Positions 8,162 through 35,143 of a stretch of DNA of 64,000 nucleotides are shown here, piece after piece; the stretch's first letter is position 1; each line of letters opens with the position of its first letter. This stretch comes from Thermoplasmata archaeon (GTDB taxonomy: Archaea > Thermoplasmatota > Thermoplasmata > UBA10834). Where the stretch lies: contig JBFFED010000005.1 in the NCBI GenBank assembly GCA_041559015.1, positions 2,577 through 66,576 of the forward strand, in the 5' to 3' direction. A program made the position numbers and the translations under genes. Below the pieces are notes generated by a model. The model saw only the letters and a list, made by a program, of their open reading frames with translations. It ran no database searches and was not told where the DNA came from.

Positions 8162-8734
8162 GTGAGGTCCGAAGGAGCAACACTCTTCGAGGATAGAGGC
8201 GCATGGAGGGATTGGCTCCGGAAGAACCATTCTCGCAAGACCGAGATCTGGCTGCTCATACACAAGAAGAGCGCGGGCAGGGTGGGGGTCGCTTACGAAG
8301 AGGCTGTGGAAGAGGCCATCTGCTTCGGATGGATAGACGGCAAGCTCAGACGGATCGACGACAGGCGCCACGCGATCAGGTTCACCCCCCGCAGGGCCGG
8401 GAGCATCTGGTCCGAGAGCAATCGTGATCGGGCGGAGAGGATGATCAGGAGGCGCAGGATGACGAAAGCCGGCCTCGAGAGCGTGGAAGTGGCGAAGAGG
8501 AACGGCAGGTGGGCCGAAGCCCGTGCCCCGAGGAAGGTTCCGGAGATACCTGACGACCTCGCCGCAGCCCTCAGGGCCGACGACCGGGTTGCCAGGAATT
8601 TCGAGGCGCTCGCGCGCTCATATAAGTCGGCTTATGTGTATTGGGTCTTGGGCGCAAAGAGGCCCGAAACGAGAGCCAAAAGGATACGAGAGGTCGTCGC
8701 GAGGGCGGCCTCGAAAAAGAAACCCTGGACATAG
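8162..8734 (+). CDS. YdeI/OmpD-associated family protein
   Basis: 190 aa. WRDWLRKNHSRKTEIWLLIHKK...EEAICFGWIDGKLRRIDD...FTPRRAGSIWSESN...AKRNGRW matches the pattern of this family. Confidence 0.75.
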   Translation: MRSEGATLFEDRGAWRDWLRKNHSRKTEIWLLIHKKSAGRVGVAYEEAVEEAICFGWIDGKLRRIDDRRHAIRFTPRRAGSIWSESNRDRAERMIRRRRMTKAGLESVEVAKRNGRWAEARAPRKVPEIPDDLAAALRADDRVARNFEALARSYKSAYVYWVLGAKRPETRAKRIREVVARAASKKKPWT

Positions 8735-9151: not shown

Positions 9152-9233
9152 CCAGTTATGCAGGCCCCGGGACACCGCCAAGGTGGCGGTTCAGGGCCAA
9201 AGGATTAATCTCCAGGCCTTGATTCTGACAGCC

Positions 9234-9884
9234 ATGCACAAGGTTGTGACCGTCGACCTCGAGAAAGACATCCTCTCGGCGAACCGGAAGATAGCCAATG
9301 ACAACCGCGCCCTGCTCGAGAAGCACGGGATAGTGGCTTTCGACTTCCTCGGGGCCATCGGCTCAGGGAAGACACTCATCATAGAGAAGCTCGTGGACGT
9401 CCTCAAGGCGAAGGGCAAGCGCGCGGCGGCGGTGGCGGGCGATGTCTCTGGAGATGATGATTACCAGAGGTTCGTCTCGCACGGCATCCCTGCGGCGAAC
9501 ATCAACACCGGCAAAGAGTGCCACCTAGACGCTCACCTCGTGGACCACGCGCTCGAGGACTTGCCCCTGGACAAGCTGGACTGCCTGTTCATAGAGAATG
9601 TCGGGAACCTCGTGTGCCCTGTGGACTTCCCGCTCGGGTCGCACAAGAGGATCGTGGTCATAAGCGTCACAGAAGGTGACGACATGGTCAGGAAGCACCC
9701 CGCGATATTCACGTTCTCCGATGTGATCGTCATCAACAAGATTGACCTCGCCCAGGCGATGGAAGTCGACCCGAGGATACTGGAGAGGGACGCCCGCAGG
9801 GCCAATCCAGGCGCTGCTGTGATCATGATGGACGCGCGCCACGGGAAGGGCCTGGAAGACCTCGTCAAGGCCCTCGGGCTGTAG
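9234..9884 (+). CDS. hypB: Hydrogenase nickel-incorporation GTPase HypB
   Basis: From ATG 9234: P-loop GAIGSGKT, ENVGNLVCP, INKIDL. A TATA-like GATTAATC lies ~25-30 nt upstream. Confidence 0.9.
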   Translation: MHKVVTVDLEKDILSANRKIANDNRALLEKHGIVAFDFLGAIGSGKTLIIEKLVDVLKAKGKRAAAVAGDVSGDDDYQRFVSHGIPAANINTGKECHLDAHLVDHALEDLPLDKLDCLFIENVGNLVCPVDFPLGSHKRIVVISVTEGDDMVRKHPAIFTFSDVIVINKIDLAQAMEVDPRILERDARRANPGAAVIMMDARHGKGLEDLVKALGL

Positions 9885-9894
9885 AGGACATGAT

Positions 9895-12102
9895 ATGAAG
9901 ATCACCGTCTACGGAATCGTACAAGGCGTCGGGTTCAGGCCCACGGTGTTCAGGGTCGCAAGGGCGATGGGGCTCAGAGGCTATGTCCTGAACAACGGCT
10001 CCAACGTGGAGATACATGTCGACAGAGAAGCCGACAAGTTCCTTGAAGAGCTCAAGCGCGCCCTCCCCTCGCTGGCGCGCATCGATAGGGCGGAGTTCGA
10101 GGACGTCCGGGAGGACCTCGGGGAGTTCACAATAGTCCAGAGCCACGACGGGAAACGGGTTTCGCTAATACCCACCGACACAGCCATCTGCGGGAGCTGC
10201 TTCCTGGATTTCCGCGAGGTCGGCAACAGGAGGCATCACTTCCCGTTCACCAACTGCACGGAGTGCGGTGCCCGCTTCACCGTGATCGCCGATCTGCCCT
10301 TCGACAGACCAAGGACGAGCATGGCGGACTTCCCGATGTGCCCCGACTGCGCGCGCGAATACTCCTCGCCAGATGACCGCAGGTTCCACGCGCAGACCAT
10401 CTCGTGCCCCAGCTGCGGGCCGAGGTACGAGCTGTACGACGGGGACGGGACCAAGGTGACCGGTGAACCGTTCGAGATCTTCGCGGAGAAGATAGACGGC
10501 GGGAGCGTAGGCCTCCTGAAGGGCTGGGGAGGGATGCACATCATATGCACCCTCGAGAACGCGGCCCGGCTCAGGAAGGTGTACCGGCGGGGGGGCAAAC
10601 CCTATGCGGTCATGATGAGAAACCTGGACACGATCAAGAAACTCACCGTCATGGACGACCTTGAGGAGAGGCTCCTGAGGTCGCCTCAGCGACCGATAGT
10701 GCTCCTGCACAAGAGGCGGGAGGCCTTCGAGTCGCTGGACAAGGTCTCTCCGGGGCTCGGGAACCTAGGGGTGATGCTCCCGTACTCGGCCGCACATCTG
10801 CTGATGTTCGAGCACCTGAAGGCGGACGCAGTCATCATGACCTCCGCCAACCCACCTGGGGAGCCAATGTGCACAGAGAACGATAAGGCGTTCTCGCTCG
10901 GGCTCGACTACTACCTGTTGCACAACAGGAGGATCATACACAGGTGCGATGATAGCGTGGTCAAGGTCAACTCGGGGAGGACGAACTTCACGAGGAAGTC
11001 GAGGGGGTTCGTCCCGGTGCCCGTCGAGGCGAACCACAAGCACTCGGTCGTCGGAGTGGGTGCTCAATGGGACGTGACCGGGTCTGTGTCGAGGGACGGT
11101 GAGATATTCCTCACGCAGTACGTAGGTGAGTCGCAGCAGTACCTCACGCTCCATTATCTGGGGGACGCGCTCCACCACCTGATGGGGCTCCTCGGGACGG
11201 AGTCGGTCCAGGCTATAGGCCTGGACAAGCACCCGAAATACTCCACCAGGATAATGGCCAGGAGACTCGCCAAGGAGTTCGGGGCGGAGCTGGTCGAGAC
11301 GCAGCACTATCATGCGCATGCGGCCGCGCTCAAGATAGACCGCGGCATCTCCGGGCCGATTGTGTGCCTGACGTGGGACGGCACCGGATACGGGGACGAC
11401 GGCACATCGTGGGGAGGGGAAACGCTCCTTGCAGACTATCATGAGTATGCTAGGCTCGGCACGCTCGAAGGCATCCCGCTCCTCGGAGGAGACCGTGCGG
11501 TCATAGACCCCAAGAGGGTCGTGACGGCCCTTCAACTCAAGCTCGGCCGCGAGCCGACGATGGTCGATGACGATGACGTGGACCTGTACTCGAAGATGCT
11601 CGGAAAGAGCGTGGTCGCCTCGAGCATGGGAAGGGTCTTGGACGCGGTGTCCTGCATCGTGGGCGTCTGCTGCAAGAGGACCTACGAGGGCGAGCCCGCG
11701 ATAAGGCTCGAAAGATGGCTGGAGGAGGGCAGGCCGACCATCGATTTCGATCTCGACTTCCGCAGGAAGGGTAAGGTCGAGACTGCCCTCACCCTGCCGA
11801 TGTTCGAGAGGCTCCTCGACATGAGGCTCGAATCCGAGACCGAGCGGGCGGACGCAGCCGCCTCCTTCGTGAAGACCCTGGTCGGAGGGGTCGCGGAGCG
11901 CGCCTGCGGGTACGCCGAGTCGCAGGGGTTGAGGCAGATCGGGCTCTCGGGCGGGGTTTCTTTCAGCGGGCCCGTAACCGCATGGGTCAAGGAGACCGTC
12001 GAACGGAGAGGGCTGGAGTTCGTCGGGCATGAGCGGATATCGAACGGCGATGGCGGAATCTCGACTGGCCAGAACGCAATAGCTGGCGCGAACCTTGGCT
12101 AA
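9895..12102 (+). CDS. hypF: [NiFe] hydrogenase maturation carbamoyltransferase HypF
   Basis: 735 aa. Acylphosphatase N-terminus (VYGIVQGVGFRP), two CxxC zinc-finger pairs (CGSCFLDF...CTECGARF; CPDCAREY...CPSCGPRY), then YrdC-like and Kae1-like regions. Confidence 0.95.
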   Translation: MKITVYGIVQGVGFRPTVFRVARAMGLRGYVLNNGSNVEIHVDREADKFLEELKRALPSLARIDRAEFEDVREDLGEFTIVQSHDGKRVSLIPTDTAICGSCFLDFREVGNRRHHFPFTNCTECGARFTVIADLPFDRPRTSMADFPMCPDCAREYSSPDDRRFHAQTISCPSCGPRYELYDGDGTKVTGEPFEIFAEKIDGGSVGLLKGWGGMHIICTLENAARLRKVYRRGGKPYAVMMRNLDTIKKLTVMDDLEERLLRSPQRPIVLLHKRREAFESLDKVSPGLGNLGVMLPYSAAHLLMFEHLKADAVIMTSANPPGEPMCTENDKAFSLGLDYYLLHNRRIIHRCDDSVVKVNSGRTNFTRKSRGFVPVPVEANHKHSVVGVGAQWDVTGSVSRDGEIFLTQYVGESQQYLTLHYLGDALHHLMGLLGTESVQAIGLDKHPKYSTRIMARRLAKEFGAELVETQHYHAHAAALKIDRGISGPIVCLTWDGTGYGDDGTSWGGETLLADYHEYARLGTLEGIPLLGGDRAVIDPKRVVTALQLKLGREPTMVDDDDVDLYSKMLGKSVVASSMGRVLDAVSCIVGVCCKRTYEGEPAIRLERWLEEGRPTIDFDLDFRRKGKVETALTLPMFERLLDMRLESETERADAAASFVKTLVGGVAERACGYAESQGLRQIGLSGGVSFSGPVTAWVKETVERRGLEFVGHERISNGDGGISTGQNAIAGANLG

Positions 12103-12136
12103 AGCTTTATAATCAGCCCTGCCTACCCGATTCCCG

Positions 12137-12364
12137 ATGTGTCTAGCCGTCCCAGCCGAGGTCAAATCGATCGATGGTCACATGGCGACCGTCGACTACG
12201 GAGGCGTGAGCAGGGACGCCAACATCTCCCTCGTCGAGGCCAAGGTGGGAGACTTCGTCATAGTCCACGCGGGCTACGCCATACAGATCATGGACAGGGA
12301 AGAGGCCGAGAAGACCCTGGAGATGTTCCGCGAGATGCTGGACTACGAGTCCACCGGGGCGTAG
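12137..12364 (+). CDS. hypC: Hydrogenase assembly chaperone HypC
   Basis: 75 aa starting MCLAVPAEV, the conserved N-terminal Cys2 signature. Confidence 0.9.
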   Translation: MCLAVPAEVKSIDGHMATVDYGGVSRDANISLVEAKVGDFVIVHAGYAIQIMDREEAEKTLEMFREMLDYESTGA

Positions 12365-12366
12365 AG

Positions 12367-12741
12367 ATGCACGAGTTCTCAGTCATGAGTCAGATCGTCG
12401 ACAGCATCCTCGAGGAGGCGCAGAAGAGGGACGCGAAGAGGATAGAACAGGTCGACTTGGAGATCGGTGACTACACCATGCTCGGGCAGGAGCAGATGAG
12501 GTTCGCCTTCGACGTCCTCGCAAGAGACACGATGATGGAGGGGGCGAAGCTGAACATAACGACCAGACCGGGCAAGGTCAGGTGCTCATGCGGCTACGAG
12601 GGCGCCCCATCTGCCTCCGAAGACTCGCCTCACAAGGTGGTGCCGATACTCGAATGCCCTGAATGCGGTGGCGTCGCGAAGATACTCGAGGGACGGGAGT
12701 GCCTCATCAGGAACATCAGACTGGTGGTGCCCGATGTTTAG
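12367..12741 (+). CDS. hypA: Hydrogenase nickel insertion protein HypA
   Basis: Starts MHEFSVMSQIVDSI (the MHE motif). Zinc site CSCG...CPECGG. Confidence 0.85.
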   Translation: MHEFSVMSQIVDSILEEAQKRDAKRIEQVDLEIGDYTMLGQEQMRFAFDVLARDTMMEGAKLNITTRPGKVRCSCGYEGAPSASEDSPHKVVPILECPECGGVAKILEGRECLIRNIRLVVPDV

Positions 12742-13810
12742 GCTCCGAGACAGGGAGATGTCGCGCGCGATCCTCCACAAGCTCGGAGCTCTGAACCTAC
12801 ACATAACGCTGATGCATGTCTGCGGCACGCACCAGGACACACTGGTCAGGTTCGGCCTCGACAGTGAGTTCAAGCGCGTGGGGATAGACATCCGACAGGG
12901 CCCTGGGTGCCCGGTCTGCGTCACCACGCCGAGAGAGATCGAAGAGGTTCTTGCGCTTGCGCGCGCGGGCATCACAGTCGCCGTCTTCGGCGACGTGCTC
13001 AAAGTGCCCGGTGCGACCGGGTCGCTCAGCGGGGTGAAGGCGGAAGGCGCCGATGTCAGAGTAGTGTTCGGCGTCGATGACGCCGTCTCCCTGGCAAAGC
13101 GGATTCAGAAGGAGGTCGTCTTCATGGGGATAGGCTTCGAGACGACAGCCCCGACGACAGCGTCGGCGCTGCTGTCCTCGCCCCCGCCGAACTTCTCCGT
13201 CCTCAGCTGCCACAGGACGGTCCCGCCAGCACTCGAAGCTATTGCCGGCATGGGGGAGATACGTCTCGACGGCATGATTCAACCAGGACACGTGAGCACG
13301 ATCATCGGCACGAGACCGTACGAATTCCTCTCCGGGAAGCACAAGATACCCCAGGTGGTCGCTGGGTTCGAGCCCCTCGACCTGTTGATGGGAGTGTACA
13401 TGCTGGCCATCCAGATTAGGGAGGGCAGGGCGGAGGTCGAGAACGAGTACACGAGGGTCGTCCATCAAGATGGCAACCCGACCGCTATCAAGGCGATGGG
13501 GCGCGCGTTCGAGCCCTCTGACGTGGAGTGGAGGGGGTTCCCTGTCATACCCAAGAGCGGTCTTGCGATCCGGAAGGAGTTCGGAGCGCACGACGCTAGC
13601 AGGCGTTTCGATGACCTGATCGCACCTGTCCGTGGGAAGGAGTACAAGGAAGCCAAGGGGTGCAGGTGCGGAGAGATGCTCCGCGGGATTGCGGTGAGCG
13701 AGGACTGTCCCCTGTTCGCGAACAAGTGCACGCCCAACACACCGATCGGGCCCTGCATGGTGTCCAGGGAGGGGAGCTGCTACATAGCATACAGGTATCT
13801 GAAGAAGTGA
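12734..13810 (+). CDS. hypD: Hydrogenase maturation protein HypD
   Basis: ATG 12734 overlaps the hypA stop. Motifs MHVCGTH, GPGCPVCV, GFETTAP and the C-terminal Cys cluster (CRCGEMLRG...CPLF...GPCMVSREGSC). Confidence 0.95.
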   Translation: MFRLRDREMSRAILHKLGALNLHITLMHVCGTHQDTLVRFGLDSEFKRVGIDIRQGPGCPVCVTTPREIEEVLALARAGITVAVFGDVLKVPGATGSLSGVKAEGADVRVVFGVDDAVSLAKRIQKEVVFMGIGFETTAPTTASALLSSPPPNFSVLSCHRTVPPALEAIAGMGEIRLDGMIQPGHVSTIIGTRPYEFLSGKHKIPQVVAGFEPLDLLMGVYMLAIQIREGRAEVENEYTRVVHQDGNPTAIKAMGRAFEPSDVEWRGFPVIPKSGLAIRKEFGAHDASRRFDDLIAPVRGKEYKEAKGCRCGEMLRGIAVSEDCPLFANKCTPNTPIGPCMVSREGSCYIAYRYLKK

Positions 13811-16416: not shown

Positions 16417-16995
16417 ATGGCCGAGGTGGAGAAGGTCTTCATAGGCGGCCTGCACGAACAGCTCACCGAGGAGAAGGTCATAGAGGAGAAGGACCTGGAC
16501 CGTGACTTCGCGAAGGAGATCAGGAAGTACGGCGGGAAGGACGTCATGACCTGCCTGCAGTGCGGGAACTGCACGGGCGTGTGCCCAATCAGCCTCAAAA
16601 TCGACTACAAGACCAGGAACATCATCAAGTGCTGTCAGTTCGGGCTCAAGAAGTACACCCTCGGGACGCAGTGGGTATGCGCGACCTGCTACCGCTGCTA
16701 TGAGCACTGCCCCGCGGACCTGAACCCCGCGGAGGTCATGATAGCGCTCAGGCACATAGCGATCAGGGAGGGCATCATACCGCCGTTCGTGAAGACGGCC
16801 GCGACCAACCTGGTCAGGTATGGCCAGAGCGTCAGGCCTGACCCCGAGATTGACAAGATAAGGGTCGAGCTCGGTCTCAAGCCGGTCCATGCGGACGCGG
16901 ACCAGCTGAGGGCTGTTGTCAGGGAGATCCAGACCCTCGTCCACGCGACCAAGTACGACAAGCTCATAGGCATACTGGAGGAGGTGAAGGTGTGA
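16417..16995 (+). CDS. hdrC: Heterodisulfide reductase subunit C
   Basis: 192 aa with two ferredoxin-type motifs, CLQCGNCTGVCP and CATCYRCYEHCP. Starts 1 nt after the hdrA stop. Confidence 0.85.
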   Translation: MAEVEKVFIGGLHEQLTEEKVIEEKDLDRDFAKEIRKYGGKDVMTCLQCGNCTGVCPISLKIDYKTRNIIKCCQFGLKKYTLGTQWVCATCYRCYEHCPADLNPAEVMIALRHIAIREGIIPPFVKTAATNLVRYGQSVRPDPEIDKIRVELGLKPVHADADQLRAVVREIQTLVHATKYDKLIGILEEVKV

Positions 16996-17909
16996 ATTCC
17001 TACCTCTACTTCTTCGGATGTGTCATCCCCAACAGGTACCCGGGCGTCGAGTACGCCGTCCGATGGGTCACGGGGAAGAACGGGTTCGATATGGACGTGA
17101 AGAACTGCGAGGAGTTCTCGTGCTGCCCTGTCCCGGGCATATTCTACTCCACGGACAAGGACACATGGCTCCTGCTGGCGGCCAGGAACCTAGTTCTGGC
17201 GCAGCCTGAGAAGAGGGACATCCTGACCGTCTGCAACGGATGCCTCGCCTCCCTGCTGAAGGCCACCGAGTACCTCCAGGAGCCCAAGAACATGGGCAGG
17301 GTGAACCGCATGCTGGCCAAGGTCGGCAAGAAGTACACGGGGATACCTGTCAGGTCTGAGGGCAGAAGGAAGATCTTCGAGCCCGTCAAGGTCAGGCACT
17401 ACATCGAGGTCATGGCGAACGACATCGGCACCGATGCGATCGCCGAGCATACCAAACACCCTCTCAAGAACCTGAAGGTGGCGGTCCACTACGGCTGCCA
17501 CTACCTGAGACCGACCGAGCACGCCCAGTTCGATGAACCCAACGACCCCGTCCTCCTCGACAGGATAGTCGAGGCGTGCGGCGCTGCCAGCGTGGACTAC
17601 GAGGACAAGCACGACTGCTGCGGCGCAGGCGGAGGAGTCAGGTCTCACATAGTCGAACTGGCGAACTCGCTGACACAGGACAAATGCAGGAACATATCGG
17701 CCGCGGGGGCGGACTGCATCGTGACAGGATGCCCGTTCTGCCTCCTGCAGTTCGACAACGCCCAGAAGAGCTTCGCCAAGGACGGCATCCCCGTGATGCA
17801 CGTCTCGCAGTTCCAGGCGCTGGCGATGGGGATAGACCCGATCTCCCTGGGCTTCGACACGCATCACGTATCCGCACACTCACTGCTCAGAAAGATCAGG
17901 GGGTCCTGA
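16992..17909 (+). CDS. hdrB: Heterodisulfide reductase subunit B (two CCG domains)
   Basis: 305 aa. FFGC...SCCPVPG...CNGC and YGCH...DCCGAGGG...GCPFC. GTGA overlap with hdrC. Confidence 0.85.
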   Translation: MNSYLYFFGCVIPNRYPGVEYAVRWVTGKNGFDMDVKNCEEFSCCPVPGIFYSTDKDTWLLLAARNLVLAQPEKRDILTVCNGCLASLLKATEYLQEPKNMGRVNRMLAKVGKKYTGIPVRSEGRRKIFEPVKVRHYIEVMANDIGTDAIAEHTKHPLKNLKVAVHYGCHYLRPTEHAQFDEPNDPVLLDRIVEACGAASVDYEDKHDCCGAGGGVRSHIVELANSLTQDKCRNISAAGADCIVTGCPFCLLQFDNAQKSFAKDGIPVMHVSQFQALAMGIDPISLGFDTHHVSAHSLLRKIRGS

Positions 17910-17914
17910 GAACA

Positions 17915-18367
17915 ATGGAGGCTTCAACCAATGCACCGGCCCAGGAGGCAGCCTACGAGCCGAAGATAATCGCTTTCTGCTGCAACTGGTGCTCGTACGC
18001 TGGCGCGGACCTCGCGGGCACGACCAGGCTGCAGTATCCCCCGAACGTCAGGATCATCAGGGTCATGTGCTCGGGCAGGGTCGACCCCGCATTCGTGCTC
18101 AAGGCGTTCACCCTGGGTGCGGACGGCGTGATTGTAGCAGGGTGCCACCCGGCGGACTGCCACTACATCAACGGCAACGAGAAGACCGCCATGAGGGGGG
18201 ACTTCCTCAAGTCGTTCCTCGAGGACGCGGGCATCGAGAGCCAGAGGTTCAAGGTAGAATGGATCGCGGGCTCGGAGGGGCGCAAGTTCGCCGAGACCGT
18301 CAAGAAGATGGTGGTGGAGCTGGAGAAGCTGGGGCCGATAGGCCAGGAGGCTGCTGCTGATGGCTGA
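17915..18367 (+). CDS. mvhD: MvhD/FlpD-family iron-sulfur protein
   Basis: 150 aa from ATG 17915. IIAFCCNWCSYAGADLAG...RVMCSGRVDP...VAGCHPADCHY. Confidence 0.9.
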   Translation: MEASTNAPAQEAAYEPKIIAFCCNWCSYAGADLAGTTRLQYPPNVRIIRVMCSGRVDPAFVLKAFTLGADGVIVAGCHPADCHYINGNEKTAMRGDFLKSFLEDAGIESQRFKVEWIAGSEGRKFAETVKKMVVELEKLGPIGQEAAADG

Positions 18368-21300
18368 GAAGAAGGTCGGCGCCGTCCTCGTGGTCGGCGG
18401 AGGGCCCGCGGGGATGCAGGCTGCCCTCGACCTGGCGGACTCGGGCTACAAGGTGTACATCCTCGAGACCACAGCGAGCATAGGCGGCACGATGGCCCAG
18501 CTGGACAAGACCTTCCCGACGAACGACTGCTCGATGTGCATCCTCTCCCCGAAGCTCGTCGCGACGGGCAGGCACGAGAACATCACCATGCTGACCCATG
18601 CCGAGCTCAAGAAGATCGAGGGCAAGGCGGGTAACTTCAAGGTCACACTCAACAGGCATTCCAGATACATAATAGAGGAGAAGTGCACGGGCTGCGGAGT
18701 GTGCGCCGAGCACTGCCCTGTCGAGGGGGTCAACTCGTTCGACAGGGAGATGGCCCCCGCGAAGGCCATCTACGTGCCCTTCCCGCAGGCCGTCCCACTC
18801 GTGTACACGATCGACCGGGGGCTATGCATCGGCTGCGGCGTGTGCGAGAAGTTCTGCGAGGCCACGGCCATCCAGTACTCCCAGAAGCCGGACAAGGAGG
18901 AGGTCCTGGAGGTCGGGGCAGTCATACTCAGTCCCGGGTACGATGTCTTCGAGGCTGGCAGGAAGGTGGAATACGGCCATGGCACGTTCCCGAACGTGCT
19001 GACGAACATCGAATTCGAGAGGATGCTCAGCGCCTCCGGCCCGACTGAGGGGCACGTCATAAGGCCGTCGGACGGCGATGTGCCGAAGAAGATAGCGTTC
19101 ATACAGTGCGTCGGATCGAGGGACTCGCAGACCGGCAACACCTACTGCTCTTCGTACTGCTGCATGGCCGCCCTGAAGCAAGCGGTCATAGGCCAGGAGC
19201 ATGTCCCCGGCCTGCAGACGAAGATATTCTTCATGGACACCCGGGCGTTCGGGAAGGAGTTCGAGGAGTACCTGTTCAGGGCCGAGAACGAGTACGGGGT
19301 CCAGGTGCTCAGGAACACGAGGGTGCCCAAGGTCCAGGAGGACCCCAGCACGAACAACCTCATGATATACTACCACGAAGGCCCCGAGATCAAAGAGGAG
19401 GTCTTCGACATGGTGGTGCTCTCGGCGGGGGCGCAGCCTCCGGCGTCCGGAGCTGCCGCAGCCAAGATCATGGGCATCGAGCTCAACAAGTTCGGCTTCT
19501 GCGAGACTGACGACCTCAGTCCTGTGGAGACTTCGGCGCCAGGGATCTTCGTTTGCGGGGCGTTCTCCGGCCCGAAGGACATCCCCGACTCCATCGCGCA
19601 GGCCAGCGGCGCTGCGGGCAAGGTGGCCGCGCTACTCTCAGAGGAGAGGGGGAAGCTCGTCGCGAAGAAGGAGTACCCTCCCGAGAAGGACGTCTCGGGA
19701 AAGCCCCCCAGGATAGGCGTGTTCGTGTGCCACTGCGGGATCAACATCGGTTCCGTGGTGAACGTCCCGGAGGTCATGGAGTATGCGAAGTCCCTCCCCA
19801 ACGTGGCGTACGTCGAGAGGAACCTCTACACTTGCTCTGGGGACACCCAGAAGAAGATCAGGGAGGTCATCGACAAGCACGACCTGAACAGGGTCGTGGT
19901 CGCGAGCTGCACGCCCAGAACTCACGAGCCGCTCTTCCAGAACACGATCCGGGAGGCGGGCCTGAACAAGTACCTGTTCGACATGGCCAATATCAGGGAC
20001 CAGTGCTCCTGGGTGCACAGGCTGGAGCCAGAGAAGGCCACACAGAAGGCGAAGGACCTTGTCAGGATGGCCGTCGCGAAGGCGGCCAAGTTGGAACCCC
20101 TGCCGCAGCCCAAGATACCTGTCACGCACGCAGCCCTCGTCATAGGGGGAGGGCTCAGCGGCATGGCCGCCGCGCTCGAGATAGCCAAAGCCGGCTTCGA
20201 GGTCCATTTAGTGGAGAAAGACAAGGCCCTCGGAGGGCACCTCAGAAGGATATACCACACCCTAGCGGGCATCGACCCGCAAGAGGCTTTCGAGAGCCTC
20301 AAGAAGGAGATCTCGGAGAACAAGAGGATCAAGGTGCACCTCGGGACTGAGGTGGCCGAGGTCAAGGGGTACATAGGCAACTTCGAGTCCACCCTGAAGA
20401 ACGGCGAGAAGGTCAAGCACGGGGCTGTCGTGGTCGCCACGGGCGGCATCGAGTACGAGCCCAAGGAATACGAGTTCGGCAAGCACAAGAAGGTCATCCG
20501 GCAGACCGAGCTCGGAGAGCTGCTCCATAGCAAGAAATTCAAGGCCGAGAACGTGGTCATCGTGCAGTGTGTCGGCTCCAGGAACGAGGAGCACCCGAAC
20601 TGTTCCAGGATATGCTGCTCGACCGCCCTGGCCAACGCAGTCAAGATCAAGAACGATCACCCGGAGACAAACGTGTTCGTCCTCTACAGGGACATCAGGA
20701 CCTACGGCTTCGCGGAGGAGCACTACAACGAGGCTTCCAGGCTGGGCGTCACCTTCCTCAGATACGACCCCGCCTCCCCGCCGAAGGTCACCTCGAAGGG
20801 GGACGACCTCTTCGTGGAGGTGGACGAGGTCTTCATCGAGCAGGCGGTCCGCATCAAAGCGGACTATCTGGTGCTCAACGCAGCAGTACATCCGAACCCC
20901 GACAACCAGGAGCTGGCCAAGCTGCTGAAGGTCCCGCTCAACAAGGAGGGCTTCTTCCTGGAGGCGCACATGAAGCTGAGGCCGGTCGACTTCGCCACCG
21001 ACGGGATATTCCTGTGCGGTCTGGCGCACTCGCCCAGGCTCATAGGCGAGAGCGTCTCCCAGGCGCTCGCGGCCGCCGCCAGGGTCAACACGGTCCTGTC
21101 GAAGGAGTTCATCGAGGCCGAGGGCGTCGTCAGCGTCGTCGACGAGGACAAGTGCATCGCCTGCGGCAGATGCGAGGAGATCTGCGAGTACGGCGCGCCG
21201 AGCCTGGTGGAGGTCAGGCCAGGCGTCATGAAGTCCAAGATCAACGAGGCGCTCTGCAAGGGCTGCGGGTCGTGTGCGGTCGCATGCTGCTCGCGGGCCA

Positions 21301-21392
21301 TCAGCCCGAAGCACTTCAAGACCGAGCAGATACTGACGATGATTGAGGCGTGCCTCAAGAATGACCTCGAGCAGGAGGAGGCGAGGACATGA
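18360..21392 (+). CDS. Tandem (double) HdrA-like flavoprotein
   Basis: 1010 aa. Unit 1 (aa 1-~425) has the FAD fingerprint, TFPTNDCSMC and the inserted ferredoxin. A linker follows. Unit 2 has an HdrA N-domain-like Cys module (PRIGVFVCHCGIN), a second FAD fingerprint (LVIGGGLSGMAAALEIA, no TFPTxDC) and a C-terminal 2x[4Fe-4S] (CIACGRCEEICE, CKGCGSCAVACC). Confidence 0.85.
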   Translation: MAEKKVGAVLVVGGGPAGMQAALDLADSGYKVYILETTASIGGTMAQLDKTFPTNDCSMCILSPKLVATGRHENITMLTHAELKKIEGKAGNFKVTLNRHSRYIIEEKCTGCGVCAEHCPVEGVNSFDREMAPAKAIYVPFPQAVPLVYTIDRGLCIGCGVCEKFCEATAIQYSQKPDKEEVLEVGAVILSPGYDVFEAGRKVEYGHGTFPNVLTNIEFERMLSASGPTEGHVIRPSDGDVPKKIAFIQCVGSRDSQTGNTYCSSYCCMAALKQAVIGQEHVPGLQTKIFFMDTRAFGKEFEEYLFRAENEYGVQVLRNTRVPKVQEDPSTNNLMIYYHEGPEIKEEVFDMVVLSAGAQPPASGAAAAKIMGIELNKFGFCETDDLSPVETSAPGIFVCGAFSGPKDIPDSIAQASGAAGKVAALLSEERGKLVAKKEYPPEKDVSGKPPRIGVFVCHCGINIGSVVNVPEVMEYAKSLPNVAYVERNLYTCSGDTQKKIREVIDKHDLNRVVVASCTPRTHEPLFQNTIREAGLNKYLFDMANIRDQCSWVHRLEPEKATQKAKDLVRMAVAKAAKLEPLPQPKIPVTHAALVIGGGLSGMAAALEIAKAGFEVHLVEKDKALGGHLRRIYHTLAGIDPQEAFESLKKEISENKRIKVHLGTEVAEVKGYIGNFESTLKNGEKVKHGAVVVATGGIEYEPKEYEFGKHKKVIRQTELGELLHSKKFKAENVVIVQCVGSRNEEHPNCSRICCSTALANAVKIKNDHPETNVFVLYRDIRTYGFAEEHYNEASRLGVTFLRYDPASPPKVTSKGDDLFVEVDEVFIEQAVRIKADYLVLNAAVHPNPDNQELAKLLKVPLNKEGFFLEAHMKLRPVDFATDGIFLCGLAHSPRLIGESVSQALAAAARVNTVLSKEFIEAEGVVSVVDEDKCIACGRCEEICEYGAPSLVEVRPGVMKSKINEALCKGCGSCAVACCSRAISPKHFKTEQILTMIEACLKNDLEQEEART

Positions 21393-27828: not shown

Positions 27829-28650
27829 GTGACCGACAAGCATGCCACACACAGCAGTTCTGACGCTGCCGCGAAGGGCGAATGGGAGCCGAAGGTGATA
27901 GGGTTTCTGTGCAATTGGTGCTCATACGCGGGGGCGGACCTCTGCGGCGTGAGCCGATTCCAGTATCCGACGGACATACGCCTGATCAGGGTCATGTGTT
28001 CCACTCGAATCAGCCCGCACCTTGTGCTGAACCTGTTCGAGGCGGGAGCCGACGGGATCCTCATAGGCGGATGCCACCTGAACGACTGCCATTACATATC
28101 AGGCAACTTCCACACGGAGAAACGCGCAAGACTCATGAACAAGCTGCTGGAAATGACCGGAATAGAGCCGAAGAGACTGAGGCTCGAGTGGGTCTCGGCC
28201 TCCGAGGGTGAGAAGTTCTCCAAGGTCGTCACCGAATTCACCGACACTGTCAAGAAGCTCGGGCCCAGCAAGGTCGGGAAAGATGATCTCCTGAGGGCGA
28301 AGGCGACCGCCGCCGACGAGGCATCTGAGACCTTCAGAATCAAGGCCCTTGTTGGAAAGGAGTTGAATCTGGAGACAAAGGGCAATGTATACGGTGACAC
28401 ACGGAGCAAGGATGACCTCGAGAAGATCGTGGACAAGTCGGCTGAGGAAGAGTTCGAGAGAAGTCTCATAATTGAGCTCTCGAGGCAGCAGCCAAGATCC
28501 GTAAAAGATCTCAGCAAGATAATGGGCGTTCCAGCAGATCAGGTCCTGCGGCATATCGTTGTGCTGAGGCAGAGGAACCTGATCTCGATGGACCACCCGG
28601 AAGGATTCACGCCAACATACAGGGCAATTGAGATAGGAGGTGAGCAGTGA
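27829..28650 (+). CDS. MvhD-domain protein with a C-terminal winged-helix-like extension
   Basis: 273 aa, GTG start 3 nt after the upstream stop. VIGFLCNWCSYAGADLCG...GGCHLNDCHY. The last ~120 aa end in an HTH-like segment (RSVKDLSKIMGVPADQVLRHIVVLRQRNLI). Confidence 0.8.
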   Translation: MTDKHATHSSSDAAAKGEWEPKVIGFLCNWCSYAGADLCGVSRFQYPTDIRLIRVMCSTRISPHLVLNLFEAGADGILIGGCHLNDCHYISGNFHTEKRARLMNKLLEMTGIEPKRLRLEWVSASEGEKFSKVVTEFTDTVKKLGPSKVGKDDLLRAKATAADEASETFRIKALVGKELNLETKGNVYGDTRSKDDLEKIVDKSAEEEFERSLIIELSRQQPRSVKDLSKIMGVPADQVLRHIVVLRQRNLISMDHPEGFTPTYRAIEIGGEQ

Positions 28651-31600
28651 TGGCTGCTACGGACACGATAGGCGCGGTTATGGTCGTTGGAGGAGGCATA
28701 TCGGGCATGCAGTCCGCCCTCGATCTGGCAGATTCGGGGTACAAGGTATACCTCATCGAGAAGCAGCCGAGCATCGGTGGCACCATGGCCCAGCTGGACA
28801 AGACTTTCCCCACGAACGACTGCGCGATGTGCATCATGGCGCCCAAGCTCGTTTCCACGGGCAGGCACCACAACATCGAGCTTGTGACGAATGCAGACGT
28901 CGCATCTGTCGAAGGTGAGGCCGGGAACTTCAAGGTGACCGTCAAGCAGAGGGCTTTCAGGGTCGATCCCACCAAGTGTACTGGATGCGGCAGCTGCGCG
29001 CAGAAGTGTCCCATCGAGACCGACGACGAGTACAATGAGGGGACCAAGGTCAGGAAGGCGATATATGTGCGTTATCCACAGGCTGTTCCACTCGTGTATT
29101 CGATCGACCTCGACAAGTGCATAGGCTGCGGGATATGCTCGGAGGAATGCAAGGCCAAGGCCGTCGTCTACGACCAGAAGGAGAAGACCATGGAGATCAG
29201 GGTCGGCTCGATAATCGTCTCTCCTGGCTTCGACGAGTTCAATGCGAGGCTCAAGGGGGAGTACGGTTACGGCGTCTACAAGAACGTCGTATCCAGCATC
29301 GAGTTCGAGAGGATGCTCTCGGCGACAGGTCCGTACTTCGGCACTGTGATGAGACCTTCTGACGGCGACATCCCGGAGAAGATAGCATTCATACAATGCG
29401 TCGGATCAAGGGACGAGCACGTCGGCCACGAGTACTGCTCAAGCGTTTGCTGCATGTACTCCATCAAGGAGGCCGTCATAGCGAAGGAGCATGGAGGGAA
29501 CATCAAGCCAACCATCTTCTTCATGGACATGCGGGCATTCGGGAAGGAGTTCGACGAGTACTACAACCGGGCTCAGAACGAATATGGCATCAGGTTCATC
29601 AGGTCGAGGGCAGCCGGCATCACAGAGGACCCGAAGACGAAGAACCTCAAGGTGAAGTACACCGATGGTGGAGAGCCAAAGGAAGAGGAGTTCGGCCTCG
29701 TCGTGCTTGCTGTGGGTCTCGCACCTCCTGCGGATTCGGAGAGCCTGAGCAAGGCGATGAAGTTCGGGCTGAACGACGACGGTTTCGCTCAGACGAATGT
29801 GTTCTCTCCTCTCGACACCTCGAGGCCTGGGATATTCGTCAGTGGCGCTTTCTCGTCACCCAAGGACATCCCGATGACCGTCGCCGAGGCGTCTGGCGCG
29901 GCGGCGAAAGCGTCGACACAGATCGCGAGCGCGAGGAACACGCTCGTCACCAAGAAGGAGTACCCGGCCGAGATCAGCGTCGAGGGGCAGGAACCCCGGA
30001 TAGGAGTGTTCGTCTGCCACTGCGGCATCAACATAGGAGGCGTCGTGAAGGTACCCGAGGTCATGGAGTACGCCAAGACGCTCCCGAATGTGGTGTACGC
30101 AGAGCAGAATCTGTACACCTGCTCCCAGGACACACAGGAGAAGATCAAGGAGAAGGTGAAGGAGCTCAAGCTGAACAGGGTGATAGTTGCCTCCTGCACG
30201 CCGAGGACGCACGAGCCGTTGTTCCAGAATACCATCAGGGAGGCCGGACTCAACGCCTACCTGTTCGAGATGGCCAATATCAGAGACCAATGCTCGTGGA
30301 TACACATGCACGAGCCCAAGGCCGCCACGAAGAAAGCCAAGGACCTCGTCAGAATGGCGGCAGCTAAAGCAAGGCTTCTGGAACCTCTGGAGAACCTGAC
30401 GCTCAAGGTGAACCAGACTGGGCTGGTTGTCGGAGGAGGTGTGGCGGGGATGATGGCGGCACTTGAGATCGCGAAACAGGGTTTCAAGGTGCACCTGGTC
30501 GAGAGAGAGAAGGAGCTCGGAGGGAACGCGCTCAAGCTGCACTACTTGCCATCTGGAGATGACCCGACCGCGTTCGTGAAGGACCTGGAGAAGCAGGTCA
30601 CATCGAATCCGAACATAACGGTCCACAAGGGCGCGAAGATACTGAGCATCGACGGCTATGTCGGCAATTTCAAGACGAAGCTCGGCGACGGCAAGGAGCT
30701 GGAGCATGGAGTGGTCATCCTCGCGATTGGAGGACTGGAGTACAAGCCCGAGGGCGAGTACCTCTACGGCAAGAACAAGCAGGTGACGACCCTGCTCGAG
30801 TTCAAGGAGCAGCTCCACAAGGGCCACGCCAAGGGCAACGAGTATGTATTCATCCAGTGTGTCGGCTCCAGAGAGGAAGGACATCCCAACTGCTCAAGGG
30901 TATGCTGCACGGGCACGATGACAGCGGCGATAGAGATCAAGAAGCGCGACCCGAAAGCGAAGGTCTTCGTCCTTTACAGGGACATCAGGACCTACGGCTT
31001 CAGAGAGAAGTACTACAAGGAGGCAGCCAGGCTCGGAGTGACCTTCATAAGATTCGACGACGCCGTCAAGCCGAAGGTGGAGGATAAGGGCGGGAAGATC
31101 ACAGTGCATGTGAAGGATGAGGACACTGGCAAGGATGTGGTCCTGAAGCCGGACCACCTCGTACTGGCGACAGGCACCAGGGCACAGCCGGACGCTGGGG
31201 CACTCGCTCCGATGTGCAAGGTGCCCCAGACGAAGGAGGGTTTCTTCCTTGAGGCGCACATGAAACTGCGGCCGGTGGACTTCGCAACCGATGGTATATT
31301 CCTCGCAGGGTTGGCACACGGCCCCAAGTTCATTGACGAGAGCATCTCCCAGGCTCTGGGTGCAGTCGCAAGAGCGGGGACAATCCTGTCCAAGACCGAG
31401 CTGGAGGCTGAGGGGATAGTGGCCAAGATCGACGAAACCTTCTGCGATGGATGCGGGATATGTGTCCCGGTCTGCGAGTACAAGGCGCTCGAGGTCATCC
31501 CTGACAAGAAGGATCCGGAGAAGAAGCTCGTGGAGGTCAATGTAGGGCTCTGCAAGGGCTGCGGCGCGTGTGTGGGCACGTGCCCGTCCGGTGCCCTGAC

Positions 31601-31697
31601 GCAGATGGGCTACAAGGACGAGCAGATATACGCGATGATAGATGCCATGCTTGAAGAGGAGCATCCCGGGCAGGAGGTGAAGCAGAATGAGCACTGA
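28647..31697 (+). CDS. Tandem (double) HdrA-like flavoprotein, paralogue of 18360..21392
   Basis: 1016 aa, collinear with the 1010-aa protein. VVGGGISGMQSALDLA, TFPTNDCAMC, PRIGVFVCHCGIN, LVVGGGVAGMMAALEIA, CDGCGICVPVCE / CKGCGACVGTCP. Confidence 0.85.
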   Translation: MMAATDTIGAVMVVGGGISGMQSALDLADSGYKVYLIEKQPSIGGTMAQLDKTFPTNDCAMCIMAPKLVSTGRHHNIELVTNADVASVEGEAGNFKVTVKQRAFRVDPTKCTGCGSCAQKCPIETDDEYNEGTKVRKAIYVRYPQAVPLVYSIDLDKCIGCGICSEECKAKAVVYDQKEKTMEIRVGSIIVSPGFDEFNARLKGEYGYGVYKNVVSSIEFERMLSATGPYFGTVMRPSDGDIPEKIAFIQCVGSRDEHVGHEYCSSVCCMYSIKEAVIAKEHGGNIKPTIFFMDMRAFGKEFDEYYNRAQNEYGIRFIRSRAAGITEDPKTKNLKVKYTDGGEPKEEEFGLVVLAVGLAPPADSESLSKAMKFGLNDDGFAQTNVFSPLDTSRPGIFVSGAFSSPKDIPMTVAEASGAAAKASTQIASARNTLVTKKEYPAEISVEGQEPRIGVFVCHCGINIGGVVKVPEVMEYAKTLPNVVYAEQNLYTCSQDTQEKIKEKVKELKLNRVIVASCTPRTHEPLFQNTIREAGLNAYLFEMANIRDQCSWIHMHEPKAATKKAKDLVRMAAAKARLLEPLENLTLKVNQTGLVVGGGVAGMMAALEIAKQGFKVHLVEREKELGGNALKLHYLPSGDDPTAFVKDLEKQVTSNPNITVHKGAKILSIDGYVGNFKTKLGDGKELEHGVVILAIGGLEYKPEGEYLYGKNKQVTTLLEFKEQLHKGHAKGNEYVFIQCVGSREEGHPNCSRVCCTGTMTAAIEIKKRDPKAKVFVLYRDIRTYGFREKYYKEAARLGVTFIRFDDAVKPKVEDKGGKITVHVKDEDTGKDVVLKPDHLVLATGTRAQPDAGALAPMCKVPQTKEGFFLEAHMKLRPVDFATDGIFLAGLAHGPKFIDESISQALGAVARAGTILSKTELEAEGIVAKIDETFCDGCGICVPVCEYKALEVIPDKKDPEKKLVEVNVGLCKGCGACVGTCPSGALTQMGYKDEQIYAMIDAMLEEEHPGQEVKQNEH

Positions 31698-32145
31698 GAT
31701 CGCACAGACGTCCACCCCGGATGAGGAGGGGGGCAAGTTCGATCCGAAATTGCTGGTGTTCTGCTGCAACTGGTGCTCTTACGCGGGGGCAGACCTCGCG
31801 GGAGTCAGCAGGCTGCAGATGCCCCCGTACTTCAGGGTAATCAGGGTAATGTGCTCCGCCAGAGTGGACCCTGAATTCATTCTGAGGGCGTTCCAGAAGG
31901 GGGTGGATGGGGTCCTGGTGGCGGGCTGCCATCCAGCGGACTGCCACTACATCGGAGGCAACTACAGGACTCGCAGGAGGATTGCCCTGCTGAAGATGCT
32001 CATCCAGCAGTTCGGATTCGACCCCGACAGACTGAAGCTGGAGTGGGTGTCAGCAGGCGAAGGCGAGAAGTTCCAGAAGACCATCGTCGAGTTCACCAAT
32101 ACTGTCAAGGAACTAGGGGCCTCGCCCTTCCGAGGTGGTGTATGA
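31687..32145 (+). CDS. mvhD: MvhD/FlpD-family iron-sulfur protein
   Basis: 152 aa. LLVFCCNWCSYAGADLAG...VAGCHPADCHY. Overlaps the upstream stop by 11 nt. Confidence 0.9.
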   Translation: MSTEIAQTSTPDEEGGKFDPKLLVFCCNWCSYAGADLAGVSRLQMPPYFRVIRVMCSARVDPEFILRAFQKGVDGVLVAGCHPADCHYIGGNYRTRRRIALLKMLIQQFGFDPDRLKLEWVSAGEGEKFQKTIVEFTNTVKELGASPFRGGV

Positions 32146-32518
32146 TATGTCCTTGAGGGAGGCCAGGGTGCGAGCGGCCCTTAGGACACTCGAGGGCGAG
32201 AGAGTCAGGTGGCTCCTGGGCAAGAAGGGGTCGCTGACATCGACCGGCAATGTCTTCGGCGAGGTGATCACCGAGCCGAGGTATGACTTCATAGTCCAGA
32301 AGGCTGCCGCAATCGAGCTCGAGAGGAACCTACTGCTCCAGGAGATGGAGGAAGGGTCGAGGACCGTCCACGAGCTGCACAGAGCCACGGGCATCGCGAA
32401 GCCCGAGATTGTGAGGCACGTGATCGCGCTCAAGAGGTGGAGGCTGGTAGAGCAGGTGGGCACCAAGGGCCAGTCGCCACAGTACATGGCCGCACCGAGG
32501 AAGAAAGAGGTGAACTGA
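32135..32518 (+). CDS. Small winged-helix-like protein homologous to the C-terminal extension of the 27829..28650 protein
   Basis: 127 aa (GTG 32135/32138 or ATG 32147). TGNVFGE... and RTVHELHRATGIAKPEIVRHVIALKRWRLV align by eye with KGNVYGD... and RSVKDLSKIMGVPADQVLRHIVVLRQRNLI. Overlaps the mvhD stop and ends 2 nt before mvhG. Confidence 0.65.
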   Translation: MVYDMSLREARVRAALRTLEGERVRWLLGKKGSLTSTGNVFGEVITEPRYDFIVQKAAAIELERNLLLQEMEEGSRTVHELHRATGIAKPEIVRHVIALKRWRLVEQVGTKGQSPQYMAAPRKKEVN

Positions 32519-32520
32519 AC

Positions 32521-33537
32521 ATGGCAGATAAGATCAAGATAGCACAATACTGGGGAGCTGGTTGCGGAGGCTGCGACGTCGCTCTCCTGGACATAGATGC
32601 GAAGATACTGGACGTGCACGCGATCGCGGAGGTCGTCTTCTGGCCGATAGGCTTCGACGGGAAGATCAAGGACATCGAGGCGATGCCAGACAAGTCGATT
32701 ACGGTCAGCTTCTACAACGGGGCGATAAGGAATAGCGAGAACGAACACATAGCCAAGCTCTTGAGGCAGAAGTCGGTCATCATGATCTCATTCGGGTCGT
32801 GCGCGTGCTTCGGGGGCACGCCCGGACTCGCGAACGTGACGAACAGGAAAGAGGTGTTCGATACAGTCTACAGGCAGACGCAATCCACGGACAACCCGAA
32901 TGGCGTGATGCCGCAGACCCACATCAAGGTGAAAGAAGGCGAGCTCGATCTGCCGGAGTTCTACGACACCGTCAAGACGCTGGACGAGGTCGTGGATGTC
33001 GACTACTTCATGCCAGGGTGCCCGCCAACAGTCAACCTGATTGCCATGGCGGTGGATGCCGTGGCGCAGCACGTCACGAAGGGCGCGCCACTCCCACCCA
33101 AGGGGACCATCATAGCCTCGGACAAGACCCTGTGCGACGAGTGCAACAGAGAGAGGGTGGAGAAGAACCGGAGGATCGAGAGGATCTACCAAGCTTATGA
33201 GATCACGCCAGACCCGAAGAAGTGTCTCCTAGACCAGGGGATCATATGCATCGGGCCTGCCACGAGAGCTGGGTGCGGCGCGATGTGCCCGAACGCACAG
33301 ATGCCCTGCAGGGGCTGCATGGGTCCGACCAGGGCAGTCATGGAGCAGGGTGCGAGCATGCTGAGCGCCGTCTCCTCGCTGCTGAACATCACGGATTCGG
33401 AGTCAAAGCTAAGTGAGGAGCAGATAATGGAACTGATGATGCAGGTCAAGGACCCGCTAGGCACGTTCTATGCATTCACGCTGCCGAAGTCCGCGCTCAA
33501 GCGGGTTGTGACCGAGAAGAAGAAGAGGAAGGGGTGA
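32521..33537 (+). CDS. mvhG: [NiFe] hydrogenase small subunit, F420-non-reducing (Mvh) type
   Basis: From ATG 32521: WGAGCGGCDVALLD, FGSCACFGG, MPGCPP, and a distal cluster region CDECNRE...GPATRAGCGAMCPNAQMPCRGCMGP. Confidence 0.9.
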   Translation: MADKIKIAQYWGAGCGGCDVALLDIDAKILDVHAIAEVVFWPIGFDGKIKDIEAMPDKSITVSFYNGAIRNSENEHIAKLLRQKSVIMISFGSCACFGGTPGLANVTNRKEVFDTVYRQTQSTDNPNGVMPQTHIKVKEGELDLPEFYDTVKTLDEVVDVDYFMPGCPPTVNLIAMAVDAVAQHVTKGAPLPPKGTIIASDKTLCDECNRERVEKNRRIERIYQAYEITPDPKKCLLDQGIICIGPATRAGCGAMCPNAQMPCRGCMGPTRAVMEQGASMLSAVSSLLNITDSESKLSEEQIMELMMQVKDPLGTFYAFTLPKSALKRVVTEKKKRKG

Positions 33538-35058: not shown

Positions 35059-35143
35059 ACACTTTCGGTGAGGAGGGGGGACCTCCCCCTCATGACGCCT
35101 CTTCTCCTCTAGTCCTAACACAGGCATCTGGTTGAGAGAAACG

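Follow-up and report, generated by a model that had tools for sequence, protein, structure and literature searches.

Can two HdrA units joined in one polypeptide form an electron-bifurcating dimer in which only one half carries the bifurcating flavin? The question is raised by a locus within a 64,000-nucleotide stretch of DNA from an uncultured Thermoplasmata archaeon (GenBank assembly GCA_041559015.1, contig JBFFED010000005.1, positions 2,577 to 66,576; hereafter the window). An intact open reading frame (ORF) at 18360-21392 on the forward strand encodes a protein of 1010 amino acids (aa), named T1 here, that contains two HdrA-like units. A second fused HdrA at 28647-31697 is named T2. We consider it likely that T1 is a type II (fused) HdrA with the architecture of BamE, a subunit of Geobacter metallireducens class II benzoyl-CoA reductase, and that the flavin adenine dinucleotide (FAD) of its first unit is the sole bifurcating flavin.

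Two complementary HdrA units in one chain

The best match of T1 among solved structures is the canonical HdrA 5ODC_A (phmmer, E = 3e-207), which aligns in three pieces. Residues 10-374 correspond to residues 147-511 of 5ODC HdrA, comprising the thioredoxin-reductase-like (TrxR) flavin domain and the ferredoxin inserted in it. Residues 449-620 correspond to 3-174, covering the N-terminal cluster domain and the beginning of the Rossmann fold, and residues 848-1000 to 500-651, which is the closing part of the TrxR domain together with the C-terminal ferredoxin. The chain also matches itself as an internal repeat, unit 1 and unit 2 being 30% identical over 256 aa (E = 4e-23) and 32% identical over 90 aa (E = 5e-11). 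The phmmer mapping and the repeat bear out the original prediction, made from the sequence alone, of two HdrA-like units in one chain; the linker of about 25 residues that it placed between them lies at aa 426-450.

Standard HdrA numbering was obtained by rebuilding the 5ODC sequence from its phmmer alignment, and motifs were checked against 5ODC and the other HdrA genes of the window. Unit 1 (aa 1-425) carries GGGPAG, KTFPTNDC57SMC60 and the eight cysteines of the inserted ferredoxin. C57 and C60 correspond to Cys194 and Cys197, E220 to E356 and K273 to K409 (M. thermolithotrophicus numbering). The unit has no N-terminal domain, no C-terminal ferredoxin and no EAHxKLRP (EAHPKLRP) loop.

Unit 2 (aa 451-1010) is marked by PRIGVFVCHCGIN...IRDQCSW, GGGLSG and a C-terminal pair of CxxCxxCxxxC motifs. 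It retains the N-terminal domain with all its cysteines, E619, the loop in the form EAHMKLRP, the C-terminal ferredoxin and the ligands of its own flavin-domain cluster (C737/C748/C752/C753). The KTFPTxDCxxC cysteine pair, the inserted ferredoxin and the ERMxxASGPTGGxxxRxSDG stretch are missing, and the PKD motif has become PRL. Both markers of a bifurcating flavin are absent, with G719 at the E356 equivalent and A758 at the K409 equivalent. [quoted passage not shown] When the two units are scored separately against the ligands of canonical HdrA, a check that had been proposed, the markers and the cysteine pair fall in unit 1 only.

The 4-Cys [4Fe-4S] site of HdrA (C386, C399, C403, C404) occurs twice in T1, as C250/263/267/268 and as C737/748/752/753. 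Read from the sequence, the cofactor inventory comes to seven [4Fe-4S] sites and two dinucleotide folds, which is one full HdrA set plus an extra flavin domain. T1 scores below the NCBIfam equivalog cut-offs for HdrA2 (1000 bits, cut-off 1100) and HdrA (745 bits, cut-off 1400), and NCBIfam holds no dedicated model for the fused HdrA type.

AlphaFold2, run on T1 with an alignment of 84 non-redundant relatives (A1), gave a mean predicted local distance difference test score (pLDDT) of 85.8 and a predicted template modeling score (pTM) of 0.87, so that the chain is predicted to fold as a single compact body. Low confidence is confined to the loop ahead of the cysteine pair (46-55), the EAHxK loop (869-871, pLDDT <50) and the tail (1003-1010); the two loops are plausibly cofactor-dependent. 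A Foldseek search with the model returned canonical HdrA chains only, among them 8rwn_A (TM 0.96, root-mean-square deviation 1.5 Å over 428 residues, a match of unit 1 to the HdrA core) and 5odc_A (TM 0.71 over 657 columns). Foldseek compares single chains, and these matches confirm the fold of each unit while being silent on the inter-unit arrangement. Neither phmmer nor Foldseek found a fused HdrA in the PDB copy searched.

One flavin site is conserved as a catalytic site

The two flavin sites of T1 differ sharply in A1. C57, C60, E220 and K273 are invariant in 84/84 sequences, as are all 28 cysteines of the seven cluster motifs and one extra cysteine of the N-terminal domain, C549. Position 719 in unit 2 varies (34 Gly, 27 Glu, 19 Lys) and so does position 758 (35 Ala, 24 Thr, 16 Lys). 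Since the unit 1 residues are invariant while 719 and 758 vary, the alignment indicates purifying selection on the flavin site of unit 1, which the catalytic residues of unit 2's site escape.

The nucleotide fold of unit 2 has been kept. Its glycines G596, G598, G601, G625, G626, G882 and G887 never vary, and residue 619 is Glu in 81 sequences and Asp in 3; by the same alignment the dinucleotide-binding glycines are still under purifying selection. Because unit 2 retains both the dinucleotide-binding fingerprint and its own 4-Cys cluster, we conclude that it probably still binds FAD. The second flavin domain had been called degenerate, and this stands for its catalytic residues but probably not for FAD binding.

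Unit 2 might instead be a flavin-free scaffold for three elements: the cluster of the N-terminal domain, a single TrxR-domain cluster and the C-terminal ferredoxin. Such a role would fit a unit that has lost the K409 and E356 equivalents, the ERM...SGPTGG stretch and the PKD motif, and sequence variability along the chain is highest at aa 641-735, within this unit. We regard it as very unlikely: the seven invariant glycines and the conserved E619 are hard to explain without a bound dinucleotide, and BamE has FAD in both of its domains.

Type II HdrAs have been proposed to bifurcate at both flavins (Lyu, Yu and Lu 2025, PMC12054007), in which case T1 would perform two bifurcation events per chain. 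Unit 2 does keep GxGxxG, E619, GG625-626, GIFLCG and its own 4-Cys cluster, and the markers persist in part of the wider family, where the K409 equivalent of unit 2 is Lys in 53/86 representatives and the E356 equivalent is Glu in 61/86 (counted by alignment columns, simple motif regexes being too strict for diverged sequences). In T1 (G719/A758) and T2 (K/T), however, the markers are gone, and both positions are unconstrained in the T1/T2 clade. Unit 2 also lacks the cysteine pair, and the chain offers no second N-terminal-domain cluster or inserted ferredoxin for another low-potential branch. In the structure of BamE determined by cryogenic electron microscopy (cryo-EM), moreover, the second FAD is not at a branch point. 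Two bifurcating sites in T1 are extremely unlikely in our judgment.

The EAHxKLRP loop shows the opposite asymmetry to the cysteine pair. In unit 2 (T1 aa 868-875, window 20961-20984), its E, H, K and R are present in 84/84 sequences, and canonical HdrA has the loop too. Every unit-1-type sequence has a shorter, variable stretch at this position. We found no published role for the loop in the BamE preprint or in PMC13518236. It may act across the pseudo-dimer interface.

Proposed path of electrons

Because every chain has a single N-terminal cluster domain, inserted ferredoxin, C-terminal ferredoxin and marked flavin, it has room for only one complete bifurcation circuit. By homology to canonical HdrA and BamE, electrons would enter through an MvhD [2Fe-2S] module, either the product of the upstream mvhD or the MvhD domain of the fusion protein encoded downstream, and reach the FAD of unit 1 by way of unit 2's C-terminal ferredoxin. 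This FAD, with K273, E220 and C57/C60 around it, would be the only bifurcating flavin. The high-potential branch could run through the unit 1 cluster C250/263/267/268 into the HdrC-like and HdrB-like parts of the MvhD-HdrC-HdrB protein and on to a disulfide-type acceptor. In the low-potential branch, Cys57-Cys60 could serve as a relay that hands the electron to the N-terminal-domain cluster of unit 2, from which it would reach ferredoxin through unit 1's inserted ferredoxin. A relay role between the FAD and the N-terminal-domain cluster is described for Cys/Sec197 of the M. maripaludis Hdr (PMC13518236). The FAD of unit 2 and its cluster would be a structural, non-bifurcating remnant. The physiological donor is probably H2, delivered by the Mvh hydrogenase whose genes lie 11 kb downstream.

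The unit 2 flavin could also be where hydride enters, as a dehydrogenase site for F420H2 or NAD(P)H, for example, that feeds its adjacent cluster. Its FAD fingerprint and the adjoining 4-Cys cluster are strictly conserved, no dedicated donor module other than the MvhD modules lies directly beside T1, and the flavin of HdrA2 has been proposed to react with F420H2 (PMC12054007). Yet two MvhD modules, the usual one-electron entry adaptors, flank T1, no NAD(P)- or F420-binding motif was found in unit 2 beyond the FAD fold, and the second FAD of BamE is described as structural and off-pathway. We think hydride entry at unit 2 decidedly improbable.

Several points weigh against our preferred reading of the unit 1 FAD as the sole bifurcating flavin. 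The mechanism is drawn by homology to the HdrA and BamE structures, with donor and acceptor taken only from the gene neighborhood. The BamE structure is available as a preprint only, and BamE belongs to a different complex (bioRxiv 10.64898/2026.04.10.717634). The TrxR2 domain of a Geobacter BamE ortholog (locus L062) still has Lys at the K409 equivalent, so sequence markers alone are imperfect. Lyu et al. 2025 argue for possible bifurcation in both flavin domains of type II HdrA (PMC12054007). Finally, the scheme does not explain why EAHxKLRP is invariant in unit 2 and lost from unit 1.

A bolder proposal, possible although rather doubtful, is that the Thermoplasmata fused HdrA has gone one step beyond BamE. 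Its second flavin site would have dispensed with the Lys and Glu markers, T1 and the single MvhD-HdrC-HdrB protein would make up a self-contained bifurcating module of two genes, and the EAHxKLRP loop of unit 2 would act in trans on the unit 1 flavin or on MvhD docking. If the loop does act in trans, the active site would be truly composite.

Origin and distribution of the fusion

Other unit-1-type sequences and canonical HdrA share 46-57% identity with unit 1, against 26-31% for unit-2-type sequences. For unit 2, identity to others of its own type is 40-55%. Both types also exist as separate adjacent genes in unchanged order: this window has such a pair, and so do loci of Asgard archaea and Bathyarchaeia. 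These identities and the paired genes in the same order point to T1 being an old heterodimer pair that has become fused and not a recent tandem duplication, in agreement with Lyu et al. 2025. The parents would have been an 'A6-like' unit without the N-terminal domain and C-terminal ferredoxin and an 'A12-like' unit without the cysteine pair and inserted ferredoxin.

The original prediction had called for a survey of the fused form, which proves to be widespread in Archaea and Bacteria. Identity to T1 or T2 ranges over 61-97% in more than 200 homologs about 1000-1016 aa long. A library clustered at 50% identity yielded 2959 representatives matching below 1e-30, and among the best 150 of these more than 100 are collinear with T1 over aa ~5-1000. 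Many further representatives are 1300-1500 aa long, and the ones examined closely bear a GltD-type insertion.

A scan of one genome per species matched at least 600 genomic loci in Archaea and Bacteria. All 80 of those kept, complete genomes included, align collinearly with T1 along almost its entire length. Their archaeal hosts include Thermoplasmata, Methanomassiliicoccales, Methanomethylophilaceae, Bathyarchaeia, Asgard archaea, Archaeoglobi, Methanoperedens and Altiarchaeales. The bacterial hosts include Desulfobacterales (including Desulfosarcina variabilis), Syntrophobacterales, Desulfomonilaceae, Dehalococcoidia, Desulforudis, Geobacter and Actinomycetota. An assembly or frameshift artefact was rejected as the source of the long chain, given collinear homologs of the same length in many independent assemblies and in complete genomes.

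The unit order is the same in 10/10 loci checked by motif position, the unit with the cysteine pair coming first and the unit with the N-terminal domain second; the reverse order, given in the text of Chadwick et al. 2022, was not found among these ten, Methanoperedens included. The fused HdrAs of two Methanoperedens loci (L015, L059) share the order of T1, opposite to that text (PMC9012536). Either different proteins are meant or the order is reversed in the text.

Two homologs are altered near the second cysteine of the pair. On the Desulfosarcina variabilis chromosome (L032, positions ~8172-8177), an in-frame TGA falls exactly at the Cys197 equivalent (KTFPTNDCSM*ILSPK), which by analogy to Sec197 of Methanococcus maripaludis HdrA probably encodes selenocysteine. 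A Syntrophorhabdaceae homolog (L080) is split near the Cys197-equivalent position.

Gene neighborhood

T1 lies in a tightly packed string of hdr and mvh genes (Table 1). The overlaps between mvhD, T1 and the MvhD-HdrC-HdrB gene suggest that the three are translationally coupled. The 531-aa MvhD-HdrC-HdrB protein is likely the partner of T1 and would correspond to BamF plus BamD. Among the loci examined, this fusion occurs at full length downstream of T1 orthologs only in the closest relatives (L001, L004); in others, for example in Methanoperedens, its parts are separate genes. An Arg-, Gly- and Pro-rich ORF of 123 aa at 17989-18360, without any Pfam hit, was weighed as a candidate small partner and discarded as an out-of-frame shadow of the mvhD at 17915-18367.

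Table 1. Domains of T1 and genes of the surrounding string, with positions in the window.
Feature	Position	Strand	Remarks
Canonical hdrA, 698 aa	14319-16415	+	Head of the tightly packed gene string
hdrC	16417-16995	+	After canonical hdrA
hdrB	16992-17909	+	After hdrC
mvhD, 150 aa	17915..18367	+	Between hdrB and T1; 8-nt overlap with the T1 start
T1 unit 1 flavin (TrxR-like) domain, first part, aa 1-100	18360..18659	+	GGGPAG, E36, KTFPTNDC57SMC60
T1 unit 1 inserted ferredoxin, aa ~101-175	18660..18884	+	2x[4Fe-4S], C109/112/115/119 and C156/159/162/166; Pfam Fer4, alignment to 5ODC 237-315, Cys invariant
T1 unit 1 flavin domain, second part, aa 176-425	18885..19634	+	E220, C250/C263/C267/C268, K273, GIFVCG...PKDIP; EAHxKLRP absent
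T1 linker, aa 426-450, ~25 aa	19635..19709	+	Conserved R430, E438, P440, E442, P450; pLDDT 86-89
T1 unit 2 HdrA N-terminal cluster domain, aa 451-580	19710..20099	+	C457, C459, C492, C517, C549 invariant; matches 5ODC 3-130
T1 unit 2 second flavin domain, aa 581-915	20100..21104	+	GGGLSG, E619, C737/C748/C752/C753; EAHMKLRP 868-875 kept
T1 unit 2 C-terminal ferredoxin (aa 916-1000), tail and stop	21105..21392	+	2x[4Fe-4S], C932/935/938/942 and C966/969/972/976
MvhD-HdrC-HdrB triple fusion, 531 aa	21389..22984	+	FlpD, 2x[4Fe-4S] and two CCG domains; start overlaps the T1 stop (ATGA)
Unit-1-type HdrA, 900 aa	23245-25947	+	'Type III'-like; a GltD/NfnB-like insertion of ~480 aa separates the two inserted-ferredoxin clusters
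Unit-2-type HdrA, 623 aa	25954-27825	+	Separate-gene version of unit 2
Long MvhD, 273 aa	27829-28650	+	C-terminal extension
T2, second fused HdrA, 1016 aa	28647-31697	+	56% identical to T1
mvhD	31687-32145	+	After T2
mvhG	32437-33537	+	After T2 and mvhD
mvhA	33544-35058	+	After mvhG
Maturation protease, HycI-type	35132-35599	+	After mvhA

The gene string of this window recurs in two related Thermoplasmata loci (L001, L004) and in part in a locus of the metagenome-assembled genome bin4 (L002). The T2 order of fused hdrA, mvhD, mvhG and mvhA recurs in Methanomassiliicoccales and Methanomethylophilaceae (L013, L018, L029, L070). Canonical, fused (twice) and split HdrA with a GltD insertion stand side by side here, so that the locus is a compact catalogue of HdrA architectures and a possible comparative system. 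The separately encoded unit-2-type HdrA of 623 aa keeps the K409 and E356 equivalents, unlike T1 and T2, and has a Glu/Arg-rich insertion of about 50 aa after its CC motif.

Hydrogenase maturation genes lie upstream at 9183-13810 (+) and encode a HypB-like GTPase, HypF, HypA and HypD. The downstream flank holds an AIR-synthase-type (HypE-like) gene at 35608-36663 (-). A further ORF of 1104 aa at 599-3913 (+) matches nothing in Pfam at E <= 1e-5. We saw no methanogenesis genes in the window.

Comparison with known systems

The original prediction of a fused, asymmetric pseudo-heterodimer is supported by the asymmetry of conservation and by a solved homolog, BamE. The design itself is not new, having been published in several forms (Borrel 2014, Chadwick 2022, Lyu 2025 and the BamE preprint). 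Its architecture, asymmetry and distribution are already documented, the locus opens no new question, and its local differences are variations within a known kind. Slightly different from the described cases are the loss of the unit 2 markers, the single MvhD-HdrC-HdrB partner and the unexplained asymmetry of EAHxKLRP. By conservation alone, the Thermoplasmata fused HdrAs would carry one bifurcating flavin, which bears on the disagreement between Lyu 2025 on one side and Chadwick 2022 and BamE on the other.

BamE is the closest system with a structure. The cryo-EM preprint describes a fused HdrA dimer with clusters E1-E7, in which the FAD of TrxR1 is bifurcating, with Lys280 3.4 Å from N5 and a Cys59-Cys62 disulfide, and that of TrxR2 (Gln768) is non-bifurcating and structural. 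The same work describes the relay role of the cysteines, an MvhD-like BamF and a BamD that resembles an HdrBC fusion (bioRxiv 10.64898/2026.04.10.717634). T1 and BamE, both of about 1000 aa, have a common order of parts: a first flavin domain with the cysteine pair, the Lys and the inserted ferredoxin, a domain of the N-terminal type, a second flavin domain and a C-terminal ferredoxin. Both have seven [4Fe-4S] sites and two FAD folds, and their partners are likewise of the MvhD type (BamF) and the HdrCB-fusion type (BamD).

Over aa 1-1002, T1 is collinear with and 47% identical to the fused HdrA of locus L062, which is the Geobacter BamE ortholog in a bamBCDEFGH-like cluster. Pfam domains mark this cluster as one of the bam type: AOR, ferredoxin, HdrCB-like, fused HdrA, MvhD carrying a winged helix, NuoE-like and NuoF-like. 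The L062 protein has C57, C60 and K278 at the matching positions (offset by 2 from the G. metallireducens numbering).

The differences from BamE lie in partner, context and second site. The likely partner of T1 is one MvhD-HdrC-HdrB polypeptide, and the T1 locus, in an uncultured Thermoplasmata archaeon, stands beside Mvh hydrogenase and hyp genes. Gln768 of BamE is Thr755 in T1, and the Lys of the BamE ortholog is Ala758. The window contains no bamB (tungsten AOR), bamC or bamGHI, and no AFOR domains or NuoE/F-like genes were found near T1. Since those bam genes are missing, T1 has the architecture of BamE but is not a functional BamE ortholog.

Lyu et al. 2025 define type II HdrA (classes A3/A4) as a fusion of classes A6 and A12 and assign forms with a GltD insertion to type III (PMC12054007). 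[quoted passage not shown] Of the type II sequences, 75% were reported to have both marker residues in each domain (PMC12054007); T1 and T2 fall within the minority without the markers in unit 2. The published context of type II HdrA is a cluster with a molybdopterin protein and FdhB (F420), whereas that of T1 is MvhD-HdrCB and the Mvh hydrogenase.

Chadwick et al. 2022 (PMC9012536) described tandem and fused HdrAs of anaerobic methanotrophic (ANME) archaea, whose fused HdrA3/4 equals type II HdrA, as well as the HdrA of the Moorella MetFV-Hdr complex, and proposed that methane-oxidising archaea have fused HdrAs that complement themselves. That text gives the two units in the reverse order to T1, but the Methanoperedens loci are collinear with T1. 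In Methanomassiliicoccales, an HdrA longer than others, with two predicted FAD sites, is encoded beside mvhDGA (Borrel et al. 2014, PMC4153887). T2 has this same gene order; T1 instead precedes an MvhD-HdrCB fusion and not a hydrogenase.

Measured against canonical homodimeric HdrA (5ODC, 7BKB, 8RVU), every domain and cofactor motif of the protomer is present once in T1. The canonical dimer has two symmetric sites, whereas T1 spreads its domains over two non-identical units that together make one complete site.

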